A DNA stretch of 34,052 nucleotides from an uncultured virus (IMG/VR IMGVR_UViG_3300023174_000105) (lineage: Duplodnaviria; Heunggongvirae; Uroviricota; Caudoviricetes). This document shows, in pieces, positions 14,644-34,052 of the stretch. Position 1 is the first letter of the stretch; every line of letters begins with the position of its first letter. The position numbers were made by a program, and so were the translations under genes. A model generated the notes under the pieces. The model was given only the letters and a program-made list of their open reading frames with translations, did not search any database and was not told the DNA's origin. The stretch lies in IMG/VR virus record IMGVR_UViG_3300023174_000105, one strand, 5' to 3'.

Positions 14644-14717
14644 TGGCAGGGATACTAGGATTCGAACCTAGAATAACGGAATCAAAATCCGTGGTGTTAC
14701 CATTACACTATATCCCA
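14644..14717 (-). tRNA. tRNA-Gln(UUG)
   Basis: Cloverleaf; ACGGA-TTTTGAT-TCCGT anticodon arm; GGTTCGAATCC; CCA. Confidence 0.93.
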
Positions 14718-14722
14718 ACTAT

Positions 14723-14797
14723 TGGCTCCCCAGCGTGGGATTGAACCACGGACCAACAGATTAACAGTCTGCTGCTCTACCGCTGAGCTACTAGGGA
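14723..14797 (-). tRNA. tRNA-Asn(GUU)
   Basis: Cloverleaf; CTGTTAA loop; GGTTCAATCC; CCA. Confidence 0.95.
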
Positions 14798-14804
14798 ATT
14801 TTGA

Positions 14805-14878
<74 letters not shown>

Positions 14879-14883
14879 AGAAT

Positions 14884-14924
14884 AAAAAGTCCCCGGCAGT
14901 GCTGTTGAGCACATATCCGAGGAC
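14884..14924 (-). terminator. Terminator-like hairpin before the tRNA cluster
   Basis: GTCCTCGG..GTGCT-CAAC-AGCAC..CCGGGGAC followed by TTTTT. Confidence 0.65.
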
Positions 14925-14930
14925 ACAAAT

Positions 14931-15524
14931 TTAATCGTTGTAGTCGCTGTCTAGTTCTATAAATACATTTACTAGAATATCACGATATGGCTGTTCAACC
15001 ATGTGTAAGTCTAGTAAGTAAACATCTAGGTGACAATTTCTAAGTAATTCAGCATGGTACATAAATTGACCATATGCTTCTAGACTTTCACTAATATTTT
15101 GGTTTGCATAGTCTTCTAAATATTGCGCTACCACATCTAACATATACTGTGGCATAGTAGATTTTGTACTAATGTTAACTAGCTTTAGGGCCTTGCCTTC
15201 ACGATCTCGCATAATTTGATTGCGCTTAGCTTCTGCCCAAGTTTGGCCGCCGTCGCCGCCCCACATATCCCAGGCTACTCTGCCCTTACTAGGAAAACCT
15301 TCTTCACCACTGTTAAAGCCAGTTGCCTGCTTATCTACTTCATGTCTGCTAAAAAAGCTGTGCATTCGTAACACAACGCTAGCGCTTAGTGGTTCACGGT
15401 TTTTAAGTTGATTAGCACGGGCTAGGCCTACTAGTGTGCCTCCTGGCTTGCCTTCTTCATGCCAAGCAAGTGCACGTTTAGCAGCACTAGCCATGCCGCT
15501 GGTAGGTGTATAAGTTTCTGCCAT
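14931..15524 (-). CDS. Hypothetical protein with a domain often seen in phage head-associated proteins
   Basis: GGTLVGLARANQL...RMHSFFSRH...AWDMWGGD pattern; recognition from memory. Confidence 0.65.
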   Translation of the reverse strand: MAETYTPTSGMASAAKRALAWHEEGKPGGTLVGLARANQLKNREPLSASVVLRMHSFFSRHEVDKQATGFNSGEEGFPSKGRVAWDMWGGDGGQTWAEAKRNQIMRDREGKALKLVNISTKSTMPQYMLDVVAQYLEDYANQNISESLEAYGQFMYHAELLRNCHLDVYLLDLHMVEQPYRDILVNVFIELDSDYND

Positions 15525-15532
15525 TGTAACCT

Positions 15533-16105
15533 CTATGGATTAGCTAGGAAAAATGCAAAAGCAAATCCCAGCGGTGTCATTGATCGTAATTCTTTAGTCC
15601 GTTCCGATTTACCGCCCAGTTTCATTATCCACGAATTAGGGTCAGGCTCAACCGGAGTTTTAGGCAAGTCACGGTTAAACTTGCCCCATAATCCAGTTTT
15701 CTTAGTATACGGATCGCCAAACCAGTGTGGCTGAAAATACCAAGGATCGCCTAATTCAGGACGCAGTTTTTGCAGTCTGCCAACTGGATTTTCTAATGCC
15801 CAAAATTCTGGATTGTAGTAGTCTACCATTCGCAAAACTTTGTCTACTAGCTTTAGGCTTTGATCAGTTCTGCCGTCTTGATCTTTTTGTTTCCAGTATT
15901 GTGCGCCACTACCAGCAAAGTCTGTACAAGGCGGAGCAGCTAAAATACCATGTATTTCTTTAGGCAAATCTTTAGGTTGTAGTGTTAATATGTCAATATC
16001 ATGTTTAATATCTACTTGCAATACATTATAACCTGATTCACGATAATATTTAGGCCAATTACCGCTATAATCAAACAATGATAGTATCGTCTTCTTTGTT
16101 GACAC
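15533..16105 (-). CDS. Short phage-type DNA cytosine-C5 methyltransferase
   Basis: LAAPPCTDF (catalytic PC), ENP motif VI, variant motif I LSLFDYSG; GTG start at 16105 with AAGGAAG SD. Confidence 0.8.
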   Translation of the reverse strand: MSTKKTILSLFDYSGNWPKYYRESGYNVLQVDIKHDIDILTLQPKDLPKEIHGILAAPPCTDFAGSGAQYWKQKDQDGRTDQSLKLVDKVLRMVDYYNPEFWALENPVGRLQKLRPELGDPWYFQPHWFGDPYTKKTGLWGKFNRDLPKTPVEPDPNSWIMKLGGKSERTKELRSMTPLGFAFAFFLANP

Positions 16106-16682
16106 TTTTTGCTTCCTTAGCTTTAGCTTCACAAAGTGCTTCTACACGATTACTAACTTCTTCACTATGTAGCCACAAATCTTTGTTTTCCAGCAAACTA
16201 TCAATCTCCTTACTAGTAAGAAAATCTTTGTATATATACTGTAAAAATTGTTTAGACCATTCACGCTCAAACACAGCTTGGTCGTAAATTTCTCCGCCTT
16301 TGCCAAAGATTCCACCACTGTAGTTGTGAAACATAAATAAACTATGTGGTGTTACCTCAAATACATCAGCACATAAGAAGATCATAGTAGCCGCACTCAT
16401 GCAACTGCCTTCAACACTACATACAATAGTAGCTGGTGATTCACTTAGCACACGCATAAATTGTAGCGCAGTGTTTAAATCACCGCCACTGCTATTAATG
16501 TAAATTTTTACTACATCTTGATCACTAGCGCTGCGAATAGTATTAAACCATTCAATATAATCTTCAGGTCCAGTAATTAAACCACTTAGGTAAAATTCGT
16601 AAAGTGCACTAGTACATTTACGAAACCCACGACTAATACCTGTGTCGAGGACAAAATCATCATCTGTTGCGTTTTTAGTCAT
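16071..16682 (-). CDS. clpP: ClpP-family serine protease
   Basis: IYINSSGG, SAATMIF (catalytic Ser), FMFH (His), DLWL. Confidence 0.9.
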   Translation of the reverse strand: MTKNATDDDFVLDTGISRGFRKCTSALYEFYLSGLITGPEDYIEWFNTIRSASDQDVVKIYINSSGGDLNTALQFMRVLSESPATIVCSVEGSCMSAATMIFLCADVFEVTPHSLFMFHNYSGGIFGKGGEIYDQAVFEREWSKQFLQYIYKDFLTSKEIDSLLENKDLWLHSEEVSNRVEALCEAKAKEAKSVNKEDDTIIV

Positions 16683-16695
16683 AGGTGTATAATGT

Positions 16696-16994
16696 AAAAA
16701 AGCCCCCCTTGGTTACAAGGCGGGGGCATACCTCGGCACTAGCTTAAGCGGCTAGGGCAAATACCTCATCGTTGGCATTTATATAGTTTGCTTCTTTTGC
16801 GGAGATCGCCTACCGAGTTGTCCACTTACATACTTATCACACTGTCGAAACCATGACTGGCCCATCAAAAGTACACTACACTTACAGAGGTAACGCGTAC
16901 CACGGCTATGCATCGCCTTAGTGTACTTTTGGTGGACCAGGTGGGAGTCGAACCCACGTCCAGCGCGCCTTTCGGCTTGTTTCATACAACCATA
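16696..16994 (-). ncRNA. ssrA: Circularly permuted (two-piece) tmRNA
   Basis: T-arm GTGGGTTCGACTCCCAC and acceptor 3' strand CTGGTCC-ACCA (16957-16930) lie upstream of the 5' strand GGGCCAG (16863-16857); G3-U70 pair; tag ANDEVFALAA* at 16776-16744; terminator hairpin 16727-16696. Confidence 0.92.
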
Positions 16995-17078
16995 TAAAAA
17001 TACTCTAGTTTGGATTCAAACCTTGTCCTAGTATTGTCTACTTGTGTGTCTCACCACACCGACCAGAGTATTTTTATA

Positions 17079-17152
17079 TGGTGCCCCTTGACAGAATCGA
17101 ACTGCCAATTGATGATTACAAATCAACTGTTATACCATTTAACTAAAAGGGC
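17079..17152 (-). tRNA. tRNA-Thr(UGU)
   Basis: Cloverleaf; TTTGTAA loop; GTTCGATTC; CCA. Confidence 0.92.
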
Positions 17153-17159
17153 TACCCAT

Positions 17160-17375
17160 TTACAACTGTTTGCTGTGAACCAAATCCTCAAACATTTTTT
17201 GCAAGATTTCAAACTTGACTTGATACATAGTAAACAAACCTAGTAGTAAATTCTGCATTTCATCTTCGGTTGTATCACGCAAGTCCTGAAGATAGTAGAT
17301 GGTTTTAATGTCATCTACTACACCCCAGCAATCCATCATTTGTTGCTCAAAATCAAAGCGGTTTGGTTTTTGCAT
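17160..17375 (-). CDS. Hypothetical protein
   Basis: Intact ORF downstream of promoter. Confidence 0.7.
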   Translation of the reverse strand: MQKPNRFDFEQQMMDCWGVVDDIKTIYYLQDLRDTTEDEMQNLLLGLFTMYQVKFEILQKMFEDLVHSKQL

Positions 17376-17411
17376 AATTTTTGCTGTGTTGAAATTTCCT
17401 AATGAATAAGT

Positions 17412-17440
17412 ATTATACCCTAATCATTACCAAATTTCAA
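17412..17440 (-). promoter_or_regulatory. Sigma70-type promoter for the ORF, tRNA-Thr and tmRNA unit
   Basis: TTGAAA-N17-TATAAT. Confidence 0.8.
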
Positions 17441-17455
17441 GTTGAAAATTTTTGG

Positions 17456-17674
17456 CTATTTAGAGTTTGGTAATTCAAGAATTTTTGTGATTAATTGTGC
17501 ACGATCATTTTGAAAGCTTCTATAGCTTTGACCGCCATTTTTAATAAAACTAGTAGTAGACTCAATTAAGTCGTCTATTGATATAATAGTAGCTTCAATA
17601 GCAATTAATTGACTGCTGGTTAAGTCTTTAGCAAAATTTGAGGTAAACATTTTTTTAAAGATTAAAGTTGACAA
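17456..17674 (-). CDS. Hypothetical protein, last gene of the fibre-like operon
   Basis: Overlaps the stop of the upstream gene. Confidence 0.6.
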   Translation of the reverse strand: MSTLIFKKMFTSNFAKDLTSSQLIAIEATIISIDDLIESTTSFIKNGGQSYRSFQNDRAQLITKILELPNSK

Positions 17675-18267
17675 ACATAATTAATTGTGCCCACTAAACG
17701 GGCAGTGACTTTAATATTTTCCTGCATCAATCTATCTAAACTTTTAGACTGTTCAGTATTACACCACAATAGGGCAGTTTTAGTAGTGCTGACTACTGTG
17801 CCTCCTAAGTAATCAACATTTTTATTCATATTTTGAAAATATGAAACGTATAGACTACCAACATAACCAGTATCTGTAGTACTAGTATAGGGCAGTCCTG
17901 CAAGAGTAAGTGTTGAATTATTATTACCACCAGTTATACTGGCTATAGTAATATCAAAAGTGCACATAATACCTTGTCCAGTTTTTACATATTTGGCATT
18001 TTGTGTATTAAGTACAATATTTCCAGCAACACTACCCACTAATTGTGGCACCCAAGTGCCACACTCATAATTTCCGCCGCCACTGGTGCTAATAGTACCG
18101 TCTACGGCTACGGCAATTCCACTGCCCACTTTAACTACACCCAACTGTGTAGCAGTGGCAATTTCAGCATCTAAGACTACGGGCACTAAGGCCTGAGTAC
18201 TGGGGGCAGGCGTCTGCTTTAAGGCAACGCCTGCAATAGTAGATGCTGGGGGTCTGGTATAACTCAT
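17662..18267 (-). CDS. Fibre-like protein with beta-rich C-terminal tip domain
   Basis: ATATQLGVVKVGSGIAVAVDGTIS fibre motif; GTWVPQL..YVKTG..LAGLPY tip pattern. Confidence 0.7.
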   Translation of the reverse strand: MSYTRPPASTIAGVALKQTPAPSTQALVPVVLDAEIATATQLGVVKVGSGIAVAVDGTISTSGGGNYECGTWVPQLVGSVAGNIVLNTQNAKYVKTGQGIMCTFDITIASITGGNNNSTLTLAGLPYTSTTDTGYVGSLYVSYFQNMNKNVDYLGGTVVSTTKTALLWCNTEQSKSLDRLMQENIKVTARLVGTINYVCQL

Positions 18268-18283
18268 ACTAACCCCCTGTTAA

Positions 18284-18688
18284 TTAAACTACGTTCCAGT
18301 TTGTTCCGCGGAAAATTAGCGTTACACTACCATCGGTAACAGCTAAAATTGGATATGTAGCAGCATTTTCAATTGTTTCTGCACCGTTAGGCACAATTAT
18401 AATATCGCTAGTATTAGTAGCTTCAGATTTAATTACAACTTCACGGCCATCTACTCCAGCCGTAAGATTAATAGTAATAGTTGCACCAGTTCCTACTACA
18501 CCAAGATAATAGTTGGGCGTTGTGCCAGCACTGTCTAGGGTATATGGACTAGCTGCGTTGTTTACTAAATGAGTATTTACTTGACCATTAGGTGCAACAC
18601 TAATTACACCGTTGGTTACCGAAATACCTGTACCAATTTCAACCACACCATAACTGGTGGGTGAAGCTAAGGGAGAATTAAAAGCCAT
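18284..18688 (-). CDS. Small fibre-like beta protein
   Basis: ASPTSYGVVEIGTGISVTNGVIS motif plus a C-terminal domain ending SVTLIFRGTNWNVV. Confidence 0.7.
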   Translation of the reverse strand: MAFNSPLASPTSYGVVEIGTGISVTNGVISVAPNGQVNTHLVNNAASPYTLDSAGTTPNYYLGVVGTGATITINLTAGVDGREVVIKSEATNTSDIIIVPNGAETIENAATYPILAVTDGSVTLIFRGTNWNVV

Positions 18689-18713
18689 TTTATTATTCCT
18701 TTTTATCAGGCTA

Positions 18714-19232
18714 TTAAGTTACGTTCCATTCAATTCCATTGTATATAAGGCCAATGGAGCCCCAAGGCGAATCAATTATGTAGTTTGCCTGACCATCAAT
18801 GGTACTAGCGAGCGCAACCACCGTAATCGGGTTGGCCAGTGCATCGCCCTGGCTATCCTTGATAATAAATATTTTACCAGTAGTACCAACGGGTAAGGTA
18901 ATTGTAGTGTTACCATCAAAAATTACTCCAATAAAGTAGTCAGTATTACTAGCACTATAAGTCGCACTATCTACTAGTGTAACCGGCAAGTTCGCCAGCG
19001 AACCAGGGGGACCCTGTGGTCCGGGCGGGCCTGGCGGGCCTTCGGGCCCTGCTGGGCCTTGAGGTCCAGGTGGGCCGGGAGGTCCAGGAAGTCCACCTGG
19101 AGCATAGTTAATAAATACATCATCGTCTGGAAATGGTGGCGGACACCAGGGGCCAATTACTGGAGGCGGCGGAGCTATGTAGGGAACCATAGGAAAACCA
19201 AAAGGCATTCCTTGTCGTTGTCTTTGATCCAT
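18714..19232 (-). CDS. Collagen-like protein with Pro-rich N-terminus and beta C-terminal domain
   Basis: About 10 Gly-X-Y triplets; C-terminal domain ending [14 protein letters not shown]. Confidence 0.85.
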
Positions 19233-19246
19233 TTTGTAATCCCTAT

Positions 19247-19280
19247 AAAAAAGCCCCCACAGCTTTTGGCTGAAGGGGCT
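19247..19280 (-). terminator. Intrinsic terminator inside the fibre-like operon
   Basis: AGCCCCTTCAGC-CAAAA-GCTGTGGGGGCT followed by T tract. Confidence 0.8.
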
Positions 19281-19297
19281 GTATACCTAGTTCAGGA

Positions 19298-20059
19298 TTA
19301 CCGAATGTTTGTATTGGTATTTGCTGGGTTAGCGGTAAGTGTGCCGCTGCCAACATTAATAGCTTCGTTAGTACTGCGAATTTGTTGTCCAAGGCCCCAG
19401 ATTGCATTGTACAACTGACCGTACTGAGCCTGTTGTTGAGCTTGTTGTTGCATCTGATTGATGTTGTTGGTAGTTGTAACCTCAACACCGCGTGTTGCAT
19501 TACCAACGTGCTCACGGCTACGCAACTCAATAATAGCGTTGTTAGCTTCGTTAAGTTGACGATTGAGTGTGGCTTCGTACTGTGCAGTAATAAGTGCACG
19601 AGTCTTGTCGCCGTCATTTTGAACAACTTGTTGAGTCTGATTAAAACCAGCTAACATATTTGTGTTAACTGTATTAAGTTGCTGCATTAAGGCAACGCTA
19701 TTGCTATTAACAACATCTTTAACACCCTCAACACGAGTGGCTAAGGAACCTGTTGTAGCGTTAAACTGATTAGTAAGACCAATTGTTTGTTGTGCTTGGC
19801 TGGCTTCCATAGCAGCTGTACCAACTGCAACGGCTTTGTCAACTTGACCGATTGACTGCATTAATTGCATATTGGCTGTAGCTTGTGCGCTTTGTGGGGC
19901 AACGGCAACATCTCCGCCATCACCAAAAAGACCACCACGGCCTTGACGCAATAAACTGCCTAAAATAAGGCCGCCGATCAATCCGCCACCACTACCAAAA
20001 CCAAGACCACCATCACCACCAGCCATCATCATGCCACCTGGGCTTAAAACTTCTGCCAT
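19298..20059 (-). CDS. Gly-rich N-terminal / Gln-Asn-rich coiled-coil protein of unknown function
   Basis: GGGLIGGLILGSLL glycine-zipper segment; long amphipathic helices; AAGGGG SD. Confidence 0.85.
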   Translation of the reverse strand: MAEVLSPGGMMMAGGDGGLGFGSGGGLIGGLILGSLLRQGRGGLFGDGGDVAVAPQSAQATANMQLMQSIGQVDKAVAVGTAAMEASQAQQTIGLTNQFNATTGSLATRVEGVKDVVNSNSVALMQQLNTVNTNMLAGFNQTQQVVQNDGDKTRALITAQYEATLNRQLNEANNAIIELRSREHVGNATRGVEVTTTNNINQMQQQAQQQAQYGQLYNAIWGLGQQIRSTNEAINVGSGTLTANPANTNTNIR

Positions 20060-20199
20060 AATATTCCCCTTGTTATTATTATTTTAGGGTTTAAAATAGC
20101 AGGTAGTACCGGCAAGTACTACCTGCCGGTAAACTTACTGTAATAGTAAGTCTAATTGAATTCTGTGTTTCATCATCCACCAATTATTTTTATTTTGGA

Positions 20200-20284
20200 T
20201 GGTACCCAAGGCCGGATTCGAACCGGCACGACTACTAATCGGGAGATTTTAAGTCTCCTGTGTCTACCGTTTCACCACTTGGGC
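20200..20284 (-). tRNA. tRNA-Leu(UAA)
   Basis: Type II cloverleaf; CTTAAAA loop; GGTTCGAATCC; CCA. Confidence 0.95.
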
Positions 20285-20294
20285 AACTTTTAAT

Positions 20295-20323
20295 ATTATA
20301 CACTGCCAGGCAACAAAAGTCAA
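20295..20323 (-). promoter_or_regulatory. Sigma70-type promoter for tRNA-Leu and the downstream operon
   Basis: TTGACT-N17-TATAAT. Confidence 0.85.
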
Positions 20324-20409
20324 TACTATAATTTTTATTGCTAAAATACTCTTACTTTAGTACGAGTATTTTCTTGTCACAATAGGGGCAACTTTTGACG
20401 CATGACTCT

Positions 20410-20448
20410 AAAACAAACGGGCGGTAAGCCTACTAAACTTACCGCCCG
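20410..20448 (-). terminator. Intrinsic terminator after rubredoxin
   Basis: CGGGCGGTAAG / CTTACCGCCCG followed by TTTGTTTT. Confidence 0.85.
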
Positions 20449-20452
20449 CACT

Positions 20453-20590
20453 TTAACTTTCAATCAAAAAATATTCGTCTTTGTGGCAACCGCACTCAGG
20501 ACACAAGTAGAACTGTGGAAGTTCATCCCACAAACCGTCTACTTCCTCGTCATGCACATTGCCGCAAACTTCGCATTCATATTTATTCAT
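20453..20590 (-). CDS. Rubredoxin (45 aa; not in ORF track)
   Basis: MNKYECEVCGNVHDEEVDGLWDELPQFYLCPECGCHKDEYFLIES: CxxCG...W..LP....CPxCG..K. Confidence 0.88.
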   Translation of the reverse strand: MNKYECEVCGNVHDEEVDGLWDELPQFYLCPECGCHKDEYFLIES

Positions 20591-20599
20591 TGTAGTATC

Positions 20600-20761
20600 T
20601 CAATAGCTGTTGCCAAAATCCATGCCGCGCTGAAAACGTTCCCAGTTACGCATACGAGATTCTAACTCCATAACGTCCTTGGGATCGCAATCACGGATAT
20701 AATCTTCTAGGCTATATGGCCTAAACATTTTTTGAAGGTTTTGCCATAGATTACTTAGCAC
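20600..20761 (-). CDS. Small DUF3563-like protein (not in ORF track)
   Basis: GTG start; LWQNLQKMFRPYSLEDYIRDCDPKDVMELESRMRNWER pattern; family call from memory. Confidence 0.6.
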   Translation of the reverse strand: MLSNLWQNLQKMFRPYSLEDYIRDCDPKDVMELESRMRNWERFQRGMDFGNSY

Positions 20762-20978
20762 TGTTGACAAATCCATAAAGTTTTTGTGCCTGCTGAATCA
20801 CATCGTCAAATGTGTACATTTTAGGCATATGTTTTTGATAGTCTTGCTGAAGTGCTTGGCCAGTTTTAATCAGTTCCGAAAATGTTTGTTTGGCAAACTC
20901 ACAGTTAAGATCGTGTTGTCGTTGAAGATGGTCTGTGGCCATCTCCAGCAATTTTGTTCGTAATTCAAATGGATTCAT
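20751..20978 (-). CDS. Conserved phage hypothetical protein
   Basis: NPFELR..LLEMA...AQKLYGFV; AAGGA SD. Confidence 0.75.
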   Translation of the reverse strand: MNPFELRTKLLEMATDHLQRQHDLNCEFAKQTFSELIKTGQALQQDYQKHMPKMYTFDDVIQQAQKLYGFVNSAK

Positions 20979-21018
20979 AATAGTCCTTGTGTGTTGTGTG
21001 TTGCAAATAATTTAAGGC

Positions 21019-21204
21019 TTATTCGCTTTTGCCTAATCTGCCCATGTCGCCTTCGTGTGTAACACCACCACGATCAACGATATTGATAGTCATTGTTTCT
21101 GCACCGCCCTTAGGCACGTCGTCCTCATCCCGCCCTGTTTTAGGGTTAGGCGGCATTTCTGGAATATCTTCTGCGTACGTTTGTACTTGTTCGTATCTGA
21201 TCAT
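21019..21204 (-). CDS. Small hypothetical protein
   Basis: AAGGAA SD; intact ORF. Confidence 0.65.
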   Translation of the reverse strand: MIRYEQVQTYAEDIPEMPPNPKTGRDEDDVPKGGAETMTINIVDRGGVTHEGDMGRLGKSE

Positions 21205-21214
21205 ATTGGTTCCT

Positions 21215-21529
21215 TTAATCCAAGTTAGATATTTTAGTTAGGGTTTTTACTTTGTGTCCTACAATAGTATCACTAGGTTTATAGCCATCACCGTCTTTGG
21301 CATAAACTCTAATAAGTGCACCAGGATCTTCGGGTGTACCAGTAATCTTAAAACTACTGTTAGGTATTTGTTCACTGCCACTAGTAATAATTTTAGTAAT
21401 TTTGCCGCGTGCAGTGCCGCCACTGCTGTTCCAACTTACACTGTCACCGCGCTTTAGGTTCTGGGCTTTTTCAAGGATCTTATCTAGTGCAGTATTATAC
21501 TCACTAATTTTTTGTGTGTAGGCATCCAT
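21215..21529 (-). CDS. HVA1/DUF2945-like Tudor-fold protein
   Basis: GDSVSWNSSGGTARGKITK...VGHKVKTL pattern. Confidence 0.65.
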   Translation of the reverse strand: MDAYTQKISEYNTALDKILEKAQNLKRGDSVSWNSSGGTARGKITKIITSGSEQIPNSSFKITGTPEDPGALIRVYAKDGDGYKPSDTIVGHKVKTLTKISNLD

Positions 21530-21531
21530 GA

Positions 21532-21792
21532 TTATTTCATGGGATACTTAGGATACATACCTTTGCAACCAGCACATTGACACATTGCGTCATGATGTGG
21601 GTTTGTGGGTTGTACAGGTTGAACTGGTGATACTGGTATCATGTTTTTTCCTTCTGGAATTGGACCGTGTGGGCCTGGTTCATGAATATGAATAGCGGCC
21701 GCAGCCGCCTGACATTTAGCTAGTGTATCAAACATACAATCGCCATGTTCGCCGTATTTATATTTACCATTGCTGCATCGCATACATGGCAT
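21532..21792 (-). CDS. Cys/His/Pro-rich hypothetical protein
   Basis: GGAGAG SD; MPCMRCSNGKYKYG. Confidence 0.65.
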   Translation of the reverse strand: MPCMRCSNGKYKYGEHGDCMFDTLAKCQAAAAAIHIHEPGPHGPIPEGKNMIPVSPVQPVQPTNPHHDAMCQCAGCKGMYPKYPMK

Positions 21793-21801
21793 AGTGCTCT
21801 C

Positions 21802-22113
21802 CTAGGTATGATCTATAATTTTAATTGGTGTAGCACTAATAGCACTGCAACATATTTCACAGGGCTTAGCTAGGGTAGGGTTGCCACTAGCGTCATACCT
21901 AGTAACAAATATACGGTGTGCACGAGATAAATCTTGACAACGAGTTATAGCTGCAATTTCTGCGTGCAAATAGATATGGTGTTCTTTACCAACGCGTTTA
22001 GCGTGCTTAGCTTGAACAGGATGCGACTTTATGTAGCTATTCTGTCCCATACTAAGCACGCGTCCACGTTTGTCGTATATAATTGCTGTTACTTGCTGTC
22101 GTTTACTGCTCAT
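21802..22113 (-). CDS. Zinc-dependent cytidine/dCMP deaminase-like protein
   Basis: HAE and PCEIC motifs; true start at ATG 22113 because the longer ORF overlaps tRNA-Ser. Confidence 0.85.
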   Translation of the reverse strand: MSSKRQQVTAIIYDKRGRVLSMGQNSYIKSHPVQAKHAKRVGKEHHIYLHAEIAAITRCQDLSRAHRIFVTRYDASGNPTLAKPCEICCSAISATPIKIIDHT

Positions 22114-22122
22114 AATTTTTAG

Positions 22123-22214
22123 TGGCAGAGAGTGTGGGATTCGAACCCACGGTACACATCTCTGCATACGACGGTTTAGCAAACCGCTGCCTTCGGCCAC
22201 TCAGCCAACTCTCT
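22123..22214 (-). tRNA. tRNA-Ser(GCU)
   Basis: Type II cloverleaf; TTGCTAA loop; GGTTCGAATCC; G73; CCA. Confidence 0.95.
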
Positions 22215-31826: not shown

Positions 31827-32153
31827 ATGTACTTGAAATATACTAAAGAAATTACTGACCGTTTAGTTGAACAGTACAAAACTGGCCAGAACGTCCAAAA
31901 AATCGCCCAGGAGCTCGAGGTGCCGGAGCGCAGCATTATTGCCAAACTGTCAAGCCTAGGTGTATACCAAAAAAAGCAGTACTTAAACAAACGCGGTGAA
32001 GTGCCTATCAAAAAGTCAGAGCACATAGAAAACATCGCAAAATTGCTAAAAATGGACCCGGAATTATTGGAAAGTCTAGAAAAAGTCAATAAAGGCATCT
32101 TACAGGTCCTAGAAACCCGATTAAGTGAAAATAACTGCCAAAATCCCGCATAA
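31827..32153 (+). CDS. A2/D3-like HTH DNA-binding protein
   Basis: YT.E....L...Y, IAQELEVPERSIIAKLSSLGVY, ESLEK. Confidence 0.7.
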   Translation: MYLKYTKEITDRLVEQYKTGQNVQKIAQELEVPERSIIAKLSSLGVYQKKQYLNKRGEVPIKKSEHIENIAKLLKMDPELLESLEKVNKGILQVLETRLSENNCQNPA

Positions 32154-32174
32154 AGTCCTATCTGACCCTAAACC

Positions 32175-32208
32175 GCCCCTAACAGCGCAAGTTGTTAGGG
32201 GCTTTTTT
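32175..32208 (+). terminator. Intrinsic terminator ending the rightward block
   Basis: GCCCCTAACAGC-GCAA-GTTGTTAGGGGC followed by TTTTTT. Confidence 0.9.
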
Positions 32209-32256
32209 GTGGGTGACAACTTGCCACGGTTTAGGGTCAGAAATAAAAAAATTCTC

Positions 32257-32295
32257 TTGACACAGATTGCTTTTGCACTGTATAATATTGGCGCC
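32257..32295 (+). promoter_or_regulatory. Promoter with no downstream ORF
   Basis: TTGACA-N18-TATAAT then GGCGCC. Confidence 0.7.
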
Positions 32296-32338
32296 GGACC
32301 AGACTACACCTAAATTTGGTTAACTGACTAAAATAGGC

Positions 32339-32379
32339 AAAACAAAACCCCGCTAAAGCCGGGGCCTTGCGGGGTTTTG
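32339..32379. terminator. Bidirectional terminator hairpin
   Basis: CAAAACCCCGC / GCGGGGTTTTG. Confidence 0.8.
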
Positions 32380-32908
32380 AACTCGTGAGGAGTTTTTGGT
32401 GAGTTTGCCCAGTAGGTTCTAGAAATCTACGGATAGCCAACTCTACACAGCCTATATTTAACCAGCGGGCCTAACCGCTGGACAGCACTGCTCTAGTTGC
32501 ACACCTCTCGTATGGTCCCGGAGGAGCACCGTCTAAGTTATTTACAAGTTCTAGACAACTTGGTAAGTTTAGGTACTTACAACCACCTGGTAGCCATCTG
32601 GGTTGCGAACCTTAGGGTCCAGGATTTAGACTAGCCGCAAAAACAGACTAGCCGCTAAAATAGACTTTGTACTTAAATCCAAAGTTGACTAATTAGCTAA
32701 GGGCTGTGGCTCGGCTCTAACATAGATTCCCCACAATTAAGACGCTGCACCAAATGCGCGCCGCTGTCACCCAAATAGTTCGACAGTCGTCAGCCGTGGA
32801 CTTGGCACTACAGGTTGCTAGCTATACATTGGCTTGCGGGCGGGGTAGTGGTCCGTGATGCTGGTATCTGCGCCTTAGTCGTTGACCGACGCTTTCCTAA
32901 CTGTCTAT
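32339..32908 (-). ncRNA. Candidate ~570-nt structured non-coding RNA
   Basis: Promoter and terminator bracket an ORF-free, hairpin-dense segment. Confidence 0.6.
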
Positions 32909-32914
32909 AATAAT

Positions 32915-32943
32915 ATTATACAGGGTTTGGGGAGAAGAATCAA
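32915..32943 (-). promoter_or_regulatory. Sigma70-type promoter for the candidate ncRNA
   Basis: TTGATT-N17-TATAAT. Confidence 0.8.
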
Positions 32944-32968
32944 GTCAGAATTTCTTCTCCCTAACACA

Positions 32969-33280
32969 TCATGCCTCGGCTTTCTGCACCAGGAGTTCCA
33001 GTGCACCCATACCCGCCTTTTCAAGGCTAGCGATTTCGGTAGCGTCAATCGCAAACTTGTTGGCAAGGCGACCGATCAGGTCGGCCTTGGTAACCCGGCC
33101 CTGACCCTTAGCCGCGGTCTTAGGGATGTACACTCCCTCACGGCTGAGTTTTGCCACAATCGACCGTACCGATTTGCCCACTTGCTCGGCAATCATCTCC
33201 ACAGAGTTACCCGTGGTGTACAGACCGATAATGGTAGCAGTCTGCTCGGGGGTGTAGTTTACAGTTTTGTCAGTCATCAT
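32969..33280 (-). CDS. T5 A2-like DNA-binding protein
   Basis: YT.EQT......Y, IAEQVGKSVRSIVAKLSREGVY, RVTKADL, ASLEKA; AAGGA SD. Confidence 0.72.
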   Translation of the reverse strand: MMTDKTVNYTPEQTATIIGLYTTGNSVEMIAEQVGKSVRSIVAKLSREGVYIPKTAAKGQGRVTKADLIGRLANKFAIDATEIASLEKAGMGALELLVQKAEA

Positions 33281-33320
33281 ATGTCCTTTGTGTTTCGGTT
33301 TCTGCGCTGTTGAAGATTCT

Positions 33321-33349
33321 ATTATACGCTATTCAGAACGGGATATCAA
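33321..33349 (-). promoter_or_regulatory. Promoter for A2-like gene
   Basis: TTGATA-N17-TATAAT-AGAATCTT. Confidence 0.8.
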
Positions 33350-33458
33350 GATCAAAATTACTGGGGTCTACGGGGTAATCTGGATAATAGGGATAATCGT
33401 ATTCCTCGTCTTTCCAATCCTGCCACCACTCCTGCTGATCATCTCTGAAGTCTTTCAT
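33333..33458 (-). CDS. 41-aa acidic/aromatic peptide ending FDLDIPF (not in ORF track)
   Basis: ATG 33458 with GAGGA SD and own promoter; MKDFRDDQQEWWQDWKDEEYDYPYYPDYPVDPSNFDLDIPF. Confidence 0.75.
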   Translation of the reverse strand: MKDFRDDQQEWWQDWKDEEYDYPYYPDYPVDPSNFDLDIPF

Positions 33459-33482
33459 CGGTTCCTCACTGTCTAAGATTCT

Positions 33483-33511
33483 ATTATACAGACATTGACC
33501 AGGCACTGCAA
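33483..33511 (-). promoter_or_regulatory. Promoter for the 41-aa peptide gene
   Basis: TTGCAG-N17-TATAAT-AGAATCTT, same leader as the 33321 promoter. Confidence 0.75.
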
Positions 33512-33512
33512 A

Positions 33513-33975
33513 TGCAAATTTTTAGACGCGGCACTTACAAGAATTTGCACTTGATTTCGCACTGGCGCAGGGGGTACCTACCCCCTTGCTGCGGTGCAAC
33601 ATCGTGCCAGAATTTATAAGGAAAATTTTGCCTGTGGTGAAAAAACAACGGCAAAAAGTGCAGTGTGGTGAAAAAACAACGGCAAATTTTGCCCTACGGG
33701 TTTACCCTATTAGGGTTTGTCCCTATGTTGTATTTTTGCACCAGGCTTGACACGCTCCGCAAAATTATGGTATAATTTTGGCGCCATATGGTTCCAGAAT
33801 TTATAACGAATTTTTTGACCAGACCCTAGGGTTTCCCCTAGTGTTGTATTTTTGCACAACCCCTTGACACGTTCCCCATTATACTAGTATAATGGGCGCC
33901 GTTTTAAAAAATATAATGATTATATTTTTTAAAACGATTTACATAAAATAAAACCGGCAATTGCCGGTTTTATTA
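33513..33975. repeat. Non-coding block of direct repeats, palindromes and two promoters
   Basis: 23-bp direct repeat at 33633 and 33664; TGTTGTATTTTTGCAC at 33726 and 33842; CCCTA/TAGGG palindromes; long palindromes at about 33900-33937 and 33947-33974. Confidence 0.85.
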
Positions 33976-34052
33976 AACGCCCAATTAAATGGGTTTTGAA
34001 TTAGCCAATGCGTCGAAAATTGCTTTCAATGCCGATTTATTGGCTTTGGTCA

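Follow-up and report, generated by a model that had tools for sequence, protein, structure and literature searches.

The window analyzed here is a 34,052-nt stretch of DNA from an uncultured virus of the Caudoviricetes (IMG/VR record IMGVR_UViG_3300023174_000105). It is part of an uncultured lake T5-like phage and encodes a split NAD-dependent ligase, a D5-like regulator, a primase, helicases and a family A polymerase, the last with 49% identity to those of Vibrio Demerecviridae. The element under study is a minus-strand transcription unit of ~568 nt (32907 to ~32340, both ends predicted from its promoter and terminator) that lies between two convergent paralogous helix–turn–helix (HTH) genes, one at 32969–33280 (minus strand, the A2-like gene) and the other at 31827–32153 (plus strand), whose products share 37% identity. 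A preliminary description, made from the sequence alone, had proposed that this segment encodes a large structured non-coding RNA. The unit is made up of the following parts, in the order in which they would be transcribed.

32915–32943, minus strand: promoter P1, with −35 TTGATT (32943–32938), a 17-nt spacer and −10 TATAAT (32920–32915); 10 of 12 consensus matches
32781–32907, minus strand: module A, ~127 nt, with closing helix GACAGU/ACUGUC and two internal arms (helices 1–7)
32701–32772, minus strand: core B, a pseudoknotted three-way junction defined by covariation in at least 106 distinct sequences
32627–32693, minus strand: ~65-nt insertion that separates core B from the 3′ domain in 4 of 13 clade members
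32450–32627, minus strand: clade-specific 3′ domain (helices 14–20), based on window-clade sequences only
32395–32449, minus strand: variable tail, with a ~110-nt deletion in the window relative to most clade members (alignment columns ~490–612)
32339–32394, minus strand: 3′ end, with hairpin AACUC/GAGUU (32394–32380), terminator hairpin (32379–32345) and then UUUUGUUUU; helices 21–22 of the curated structure, with the terminator hairpin also in the minimum free energy (MFE) fold

A transcription unit bounded by promoter and terminator

The near-consensus promoter and strong terminator on which the preliminary description was built are both borne out by comparison with relatives. P1 is conserved in all five close relatives first aligned, and its sequence predicts a start at ~32908–32907, at UAGACAG. 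The layout TATAAT-N7-T(A/C)(G/A)ACAG is common to P1 and to the upstream minus-strand promoters at 33488 and 33326; it occurs four times in the window against 0.22 expected, a number reached by none of 100 shuffled sequences. At the other end, the terminator hairpin and UUUUGUUUU are present in the MFE fold, and the hairpin is conserved as a 16-pair helix, with 94% pairing across the 10 relatives whose sequence extends this far. A simple terminator scan missed this element because of its branched loop. The hairpin reads as a terminator on the plus strand too. No internal intrinsic terminators were found in the window unit or in the arrays of two relatives that were scanned. A plus-strand promoter at 32882–32911 (11 of 12 matches) is not conserved, since its −35 element falls in a hairpin that differs among relatives, and we treated it as a chance occurrence.

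The unit contains no credible open reading frame (ORF), as had been stated. The longest on the minus strand encode 25 and 23 amino acids and those on the plus strand 45, 34 and 31, and none is kept in frame or length across 13 sequences of the window clade. Reassignment of any single stop codon opens at most 91 of the ~201 codons in the unit. The suggestion that the segment is more GC-rich than other intergenic DNA holds in part: its GC fraction is 0.44–0.56, compared with 0.34–0.48 for the non-coding DNA of 33300–34000.

Conserved pairing along the transcript

The minus strand of the unit folds with an MFE of −195.4 kcal/mol, compared with −173.0 ± 6.3 kcal/mol for shuffled sequences (z = −3.55; none of 100 shuffles was as low). 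Five loci align along the whole RNA at 75–86% identity. In a curated structure of 109 pairs, evaluated on 13 full-length window-clade sequences, 98.0% of 1342 cells are paired and 17 pairs have changed on both sides, compared with 8.7 ± 1.7 in shuffles, whereas slid controls are 30–42% paired and give 0–3 such pairs. G–U and A–C combinations occur in a ratio of 77:3 in this set, which identifies the minus strand as the strand that is folded. The curated helices were used in place of the RNAalifold consensus for the full-length sequences, which disrupted the core B fold that had been validated; the RNAalifold choice for the 3′ domain, AACUU/AAGUU together with GUCUAG/UUAGAC, is contradicted by relatives L185 and L176.

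Within the window clade, the module A helices are 92–100% paired, and helices 2, 3 and 4 have changed on both sides. A CUGACGA that resembles part of a hammerhead is found at the end of module A but lacks a stem II. The 3′ domain consists of hairpins CCUGG/CCAGG (which encloses GGU-UCGCA-ACC), GUAA/UUAC, CAAGUU/AACUUG, one that is variable and CCAGCGG/CCGCUGG, spaced by long invariant single-stranded blocks. Its helices are 95–100% paired, with changes on both sides in helices 15, 18, 19 and 20. The domain is confined to about a dozen close relatives: nhmmer found no relatives of it outside the clade, and an exact 21-mer scan of IMG/VR returned five loci only. By comparison with its relatives the window RNA has two peculiarities, the ~65-nt insertion that it has in common with other members of the group of 4 of the 13 sequences, and the ~110-nt deletion in the variable tail. 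The insertion holds one hairpin, ACUUUG/CAAAGU, and two GCGGCUAGUCU repeats, and one RNA-library contig, from a relative, skips precisely 32627..32693.

Seven of the nine stems read by eye in the preliminary description are part of the 109-pair structure. GTCG/CGAC, TGTGG/CCACA, CCTGG/CCAGG, CAAGTT/AACTTG, CCAGCGG/CCGCTGG and AACTC/GAGTT were kept, and GTAAGT/ACTTAC was reduced to 4 bp. The other two are not part of it: ACTTTG/CAAAGT lies within the insertion of 4 of the 13 sequences, where other complementary arms replace it (by eye), and CTGTCG/TGACAG competes with two better-supported helices. The tandem repeat GCGGCTAGTCT noted in the same place is real (32628–32638 and 32645–32655). The long-range GTCTAA/TTAGAC pairing is not conserved, GUCUAA being present in 1 of the 13 sequences.

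Core B, a pseudoknotted three-way junction

The most widely distributed part of the transcript is a 72-nt junction, core B, which was examined in at least 106 distinct sequences from lake and viral metagenomes. A pattern search yielded 73 IMG/VR loci and at least 120 metagenome stretches, 80 of which were taken with their flanks. The elements of the junction are as follows.

Helix P1: GGG/CCC, with little variation, 96.9% paired
Helix P2a: GAC(A)G/CGUC around a variable hairpin, with changes from AU to UA (12 sequences) and from CG to AU (6)
Variable hairpin: four pairs counted, each of them changed on both sides
Helix P3: UUGUGG/CCACAG with a small inner hairpin, no variation
Pseudoknot: 100% paired, between CGG and a CCG of the P3 loop; two of its three pairs change from GC to AU (4 and 5 sequences)

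Overall, 96.1% of 2085 cells are paired and 9 of 20 pairs have changed on both sides. None of 500 shuffles matches this covariation, and slid controls are 33–44% paired. In a separate sample assembled by synteny, CTTAATTGTGG is present in 38 of 38 sequences. A model of the junction, R1, finds a single copy in the window (E = 7.8e-14) and no second one, the next-best hit (E = 0.29) lying within a coding region. The same model does not find core B in T5 or in Vibrio phage Thalassa.

Core B is near-invariant and 53–90 nt long. Two frames are candidates for a small peptide: a 25-residue frame over core B (32697–32774, minus strand) coincides with the most conserved block, and an antisense frame of 45 residues (32497–32634, plus strand) starts at a TTG that is conserved in most clade members. 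However, the indels in the variable hairpin are not multiples of three, only 6 of the 13 sequences of the clade have the 25-residue frame open, the antisense frame is missing from two members and elsewhere ranges between 34 and 55 residues, and substitutions track base-pairing rather than codon positions. We regard it as extremely unlikely that one or more peptides account for the locus.

RNA-library contigs

Four RNA-library runs were examined, in which the evidence takes the form of assembled contigs of relatives that are 88–95% identical to the window. Contigs of close relatives from three studies cover 32457–32944. Their depths over the RNA are 182 (contig X8), 180 (X17) and 242 or 73 (X18), compared with 5–45 on the A2-like gene and 0–3 on the convergent genes, and the highest values fall in the 3′ domain. 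This contrast is hard to explain by carry-over of DNA and suggests that the RNA is made, although it stops short of proving a discrete transcript. The gap in contig coverage at 32274–32445 is uninformative because it includes the variable tail, in which relatives and window are not alike. Contig X17 ends inside core B, which could be read as a site of cleavage but probably reflects strain variation in the variable hairpin. Together with the covariation and the strand-specific G–U pairs, these contigs uphold the proposal that a structured RNA is encoded here.

Modular arrangement in relatives

More than 700 relatives of the A2-like protein are present in IMG/VR, and 80 of their loci were kept for comparison. 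In distant loci, where this protein is ~50% identical, the stretch from promoter P1 to core B was matched in 44–63 of 79 and the protein gene in 64–79 of 79. In most relatives module A is a separate small RNA; in distant ones it has its own U-run end, followed by a second promoter. Core B has its own promoter 3–30 nt upstream in 102 of 133 distinct loci and is fused to module A in 11, which constitute the window clade. Because core B usually has its own promoter, module A its own U-run and the 3′ domain is confined to the clade, the 568-nt transcript is a lineage-specific fusion of module A, core B and a 3′ domain, and not one ancient large RNA. The preliminary description was thus right about a large structured RNA transcript; what does not stand is the idea of a single large RNA.

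In relatives, core B heads ORF-free arrays of 0.6–1.3 kb. A tRNA-Glu(UUC) lies downstream of it on the same strand in 38 of 104 loci, with gaps of 10–504 nt; there is one further downstream tRNA, a tRNA-Tyr, among these 104 loci, and no tRNA on the other strand. A hammerhead core with stem II is found downstream of core B in 73 of 104 loci, compared with 0 of 104 in antisense, and its stem II covaries. A second copy of the junction, module C, directly precedes the tRNA or the hammerhead. Model R1 matches module C in 3 of 25 loci, and for 14 of 17 module C pseudoknot triplets (3.6 expected) a complementary triplet is present in the P3 loop. None of these elements is found in the window clade: there is no tRNA at this locus by ARAGORN or Rfam, no hammerhead core and no module C.

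The order of elements in these arrays (L069 4553–4890, L237, L017, L030, L048 and ~70 others) is promoter, core B, a hairpin, module C and tRNA-Glu(UUC), followed by a type I hammerhead, whose stem III is very long, and then by a further 500–700 nt of RNA. The hammerhead starts ~7 nt past the encoded CCA of the tRNA. Its stems I and III are a reading by eye in L069 only, and the copy in L048 escaped the Rfam hammerhead models at E ≤ 5. The hexamer UAGUCU, often as UAGUCUGUUUU, occurs 134 times in the sense and 21 times in the antisense orientation in the arrays (38.6 expected per strand) and is present in 73 of 104 loci. In some relatives such repeats lie past the terminator and not inside the RNA; in the window, 32628–32655 is the site of UAGUCU-type repeats.

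An exact-match scan for core B in 185,579 species genomes gave one match, a 2859-bp contig (L282; CAZDRR010000094.1) in a bin of a metagenome-assembled genome assigned to Saccharibacteria; this is probably a mis-binned phage fragment and is uninformative on the host. Among 50,697 phage records, neither the region (BLASTN) nor the A2-like protein (TBLASTN) had a match.

The arrays raise the main rival to a trans-acting RNA, namely that core B and module C are promoter-proximal elements that act in cis in making and maturing a long folded untranslated transcript, with the window transcript representing the same platform with a different cargo. Possible modes are polymerase-bound antitermination, for which the put RNA of HK022 is the model, a processing or stability handle near RNase P and hammerhead sites, or a new self-cleaving motif. 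The position of core B directly behind its own promoter in most loci and at the head of the ORF-free arrays fits such a role, as do its approach to within 10 nt of tRNA-Glu and the placement of module C immediately before a tRNA or hammerhead. A sequence that is near-invariant even in helices also fits recognition by a conserved host machine. Several observations point the other way. The lack of internal intrinsic terminators in two arrays and the window unit removes one reason for antitermination, as far as intrinsic and not Rho-dependent termination is concerned; core B is internal rather than 5′-terminal in the window clade; no cleavage-site signature was identified; and no known ribozyme family matches at E ≤ 10. 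On balance we think this explanation unlikely, though it is the strongest competitor.

The absence of the tRNA and hammerhead core from the window clade could also mean that the window RNA is a decaying remnant, in which the tRNA-Glu/hammerhead cargo has been lost, the 3′ half is a relic that owes its transcription solely to the surviving promoter and terminator, and only module A and core B still function. The 65-nt insertion, the ~110-nt indel and the swapped hairpins among 13 close relatives would be expected of such decay. The 3′ domain, however, keeps invariant blocks of 20–30 nt in sequences that are otherwise ~75% identical, its hairpins (helices 15, 18, 19 and 20) have been maintained through changes on both sides, and it is the site of the highest RNA-library depths. 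A remnant of this kind therefore seems improbable.

Neighboring genes and short motifs

Both flanking HTH proteins match the profile phrog_1725 (2e-7 and 4e-6), to which T5 A2 also belongs (4e-52), but a BLASTP comparison with T5 A2 gave no match. The label 'A2-like' used in the preliminary description is thus valid at the level of the profile only. Upstream, behind a promoter of the P1 class, a minus-strand ORF of 42 codons (33333–33461) encodes a very acidic, Trp- and Tyr-rich product (MKDFRDDQQEWWQDWKDEEYDYPYYPDYPVDPSNFDLDIPF) that has no PHROG or Pfam match. Just past the A2-like stop codon is a 10-bp inverted repeat, GGGAGAAGAA...UUCUUCUCCC (32928–32961, minus strand), that overlaps the −35 element of P1, and an analogous palindrome, TCAAG-N9-CTTGA, is found at the same place in distant loci. 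The repeat could be an operator for an HTH protein or an mRNA-end hairpin.

A further promoter, identified by promoter scan and sequence, faces the RNA unit:

32257–32286, plus strand: convergent promoter, TTGACA-18-TATAAT, 12 of 12 matches

Its product is predicted to be ~90 nt long, to start with GGCGCC and to overlap the terminator hairpin of the structured RNA in antisense. Perfect promoters of this type also occur on the plus strand at 33747–33776 and 33864–33893, all three opposing minus-strand genes. None of them drives an ORF; GGCGCC and then a short hairpin or terminator come after each. Relative L048 has one such promoter at the same relative place. Beside these backward-pointing promoters, GCCGTTGTTTTTTCACCACA occurs twice in tandem in non-coding DNA (33620–33700, minus strand).

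The 8-mer GACCCTAA is present in 12 copies in the window compared with ~1 expected, a count reached by none of 100 shuffles. Ten of the 12 copies are on the minus strand, in both genic and intergenic DNA, and sites include 32612–32619 (minus), 32231–32238 (minus) and 32164–32171 (plus); the RNA array of L048 contains three copies of a related repeat, GACCCTAAGCTGTGGCAAGTCGT. The 8-mer could be a protein-binding or nicking site.

Elsewhere in the window, Rfam and ARAGORN identify six tRNAs and a permuted tmRNA, all within 14644–22214. The tmRNA is of the two-piece type (16653–17032, minus strand), encodes the tag ANDEVFALAA, scores best with the betaproteobacterial model and lies directly upstream of a ClpP-like protease gene (phrog_1827; 16071–16682, minus strand). 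It may serve as a hint to the host group.

The short repeated motifs at the locus invite the explanation that the segment works as double-stranded DNA through repeats and protein-binding sites and that its transcription is incidental. T5 has a repeat-rich non-coding region in its left terminal repeat (bioRxiv 10.1101/866236), the locus described here lies among A2-family genes, and it contains the two GCGGCTAGTCT copies, GACCCTAA and the palindrome over the −35 element. A DNA signal would not explain why compensatory changes keep the helices, why G–U pairs are tolerated on one strand only or why the pseudoknot covaries, nor why promoter and terminator frame the unit and RNA-library depth is 4–30 times that of the flanking gene. 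In addition, core B is absent from T5 and Thalassa. We consider a DNA-level signal highly improbable.

Interpretation

These results indicate that the locus acts as a folded RNA and not as a peptide or as DNA, and we are confident that it is a real, functional structured RNA. As an explanation of the whole, we favor with moderate confidence a ~568-nt modular non-coding RNA gene that works at the RNA level and in trans at the start of infection. In such a scheme, the host σ70 RNA polymerase would transcribe the unit, as predicted from the promoter class of the two upstream protein genes, and a stable RNA would accumulate in the first phase of infection. The RNA would then act in trans on a conserved host or phage factor, with the invariant junction and invariant loops as putative recognition surfaces and a swappable 3′ cargo (tRNA-Glu and hammerheads in relatives, the 3′ domain in the window) setting the target. 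The sole pointer to 'very early' expression is the promoter class that the unit has in common with the A2-like gene, from which such timing may be inferred. The scaffold or anti-defense decoy role put forward in the preliminary description is no more than a possible one. Taken by itself, the trans-acting mechanism is a tentative proposal; we prefer it because of the promoter class, the abundance of the RNA and the resemblance of the invariant junction and loops to recognition surfaces.

Several features of the data weigh against this interpretation. The pattern used in the search itself imposes part of the P3 and P1 invariance seen in the set of 106 sequences, and in the MAFFT alignment of core B the ratio of G–U to A–C is only 38:31 once the one invariant U–G pair is set aside. 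Outside the clade the support for module A is weak, with 83.7% pairing on the broad MAFFT alignment. The RNA-library contigs give neither strand nor ends, may mix related phages and come from libraries that can hold DNA; contig X8 also extends ~55 nt upstream of the predicted start, which could be read-through from the A2-like gene, or DNA.

A more far-reaching proposal, which we advance as quite unlikely, is that core B and module C form a new class of functional RNA that organizes the production and cleavage of an RNA-only 'operon', fired from host promoters at DNA entry throughout a clade of T5-like phages. Such a class could comprise cis elements directed at polymerase or RNase, or else a self-cleaving motif of a new kind, and the parts of the operon would be a small RNA, tRNA-Glu, a hammerhead and ornate domains. 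If this were true, the 'large untranslated region' beside A1/A2-type genes of T5-like phages would work via RNA, at least in this clade, and not only as a DNA stop signal.

To our knowledge, large structured RNAs of unknown function are rare, and each new class so far has led to new biology or to a new RNA architecture. The present one is uncatalogued, in that it has no Rfam match and no published description was found. It offers good material for study: a pseudoknotted junction of 72 nt that covaries cleanly and is available in at least 106 distinct versions, module swaps in nature that reveal separable parts, and direct links to tRNA-Glu and hammerhead ribozymes. The locus also adjoins A2-family genes, whose neighboring non-coding DNA in T5 has been unexplained for decades. 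An RNA that targets a host factor within minutes of the onset of infection would represent a novel RNA-based tool for takeover or counter-defense, whereas a cis-acting platform would reveal the means by which phages make long untranslated RNAs in bacteria.

Comparison with known systems

The expectation that the RNA lies outside known families was borne out by the searches in both the window and its relatives. No large ornate RNA family (GOLLD, ROOL, OLE, HEARO or raiA) was matched in the window at the Rfam gathering score or over 32100–33100 at E ≤ 10, and none in eight relatives at the gathering score or in four clade members at E ≤ 1. Twister, twister-sister, pistol, hatchet and HDV-like ribozymes gave no Rfam match at E ≤ 10. 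By our own reading, core B differs from the HDV topology in that pairing joins its 5′ GGG to its 3′ CCC and the P3 loop houses the partner strand of the pseudoknot. A hammerhead core is absent from all window-clade loci, also in a search that relaxed C3 and permitted a stem II of as much as 140 nt. The tRNA model RF00005 has no match in 32100–33100 at E ≤ 10; GGUUCGCAACC and GCGGUUAGGC resemble T- and D-loops by eye only. Like a riboswitch, core B has a conserved junction and a pseudoknot, but no coding gene lies downstream of it: what follows is a tRNA or further RNA in relatives and the terminator in the window. Among the matches listed in literature searches on phage hammerheads and tRNAs and on the T5 pre-early/injection-stop region, we found no description of this RNA, and we found no literature joining Demerecviridae with a hammerhead.

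GOLLD (RF01998) and ROOL (RF03087) are large, ornate, multimer-forming and ORF-free RNAs of unknown function that are carried by phages, often beside tRNA genes. At ~568 nt the window RNA falls in the same size class, as the preliminary description had it, and its relatives carry tRNA-Glu in the same transcript. It differs from them in having no sequence or structure match to either and in being a chain of modules that are separable and self-promoted in most relatives. The species 1 and 2 RNAs of T4 are likewise stable, structured RNAs of unknown function, and are co-transcribed with tRNAs in early tRNA clusters. Unlike these, the window RNA is found beside A2-family genes and apart from the tRNA/tmRNA cluster of the window at 14.6–22.2 kb.

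The left terminal repeat of T5 contains, according to Davison (bioRxiv 10.1101/866236), a 1662-bp non-coding region rich in repeats and palindromes, the region of the injection stop signal. It is described as acting at the DNA level, through paired DnaA boxes that lie in the inverted repeats IRC and IRD. The two systems are alike in being conserved non-coding regions of 0.6–1.7 kb with repeats among pre-early-type genes and with A2-family DNA-binding genes nearby. They differ in that the constraint here is on RNA pairing and in that T5 lacks core B. IMG/VR labels two complete relatives with direct terminal repeats, and in their records the locus has an internal position.

Ribozymes flanking phage tRNAs are a further parallel. 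They include HDV-like theta ribozymes (PMC10879173) and clustered phage hammerheads (PMC3088659). The window RNA is unlike such systems, since it has neither tRNA nor hammerhead and its partner is a junction that matches no known ribozyme. The relatives come closer, with a type I hammerhead ~7 nt after tRNA-Glu in untranslated arrays of 0.6–1.3 kb, but their hammerhead cleavage site lies ~100 nt beyond the tRNA and not at its 3′ end.

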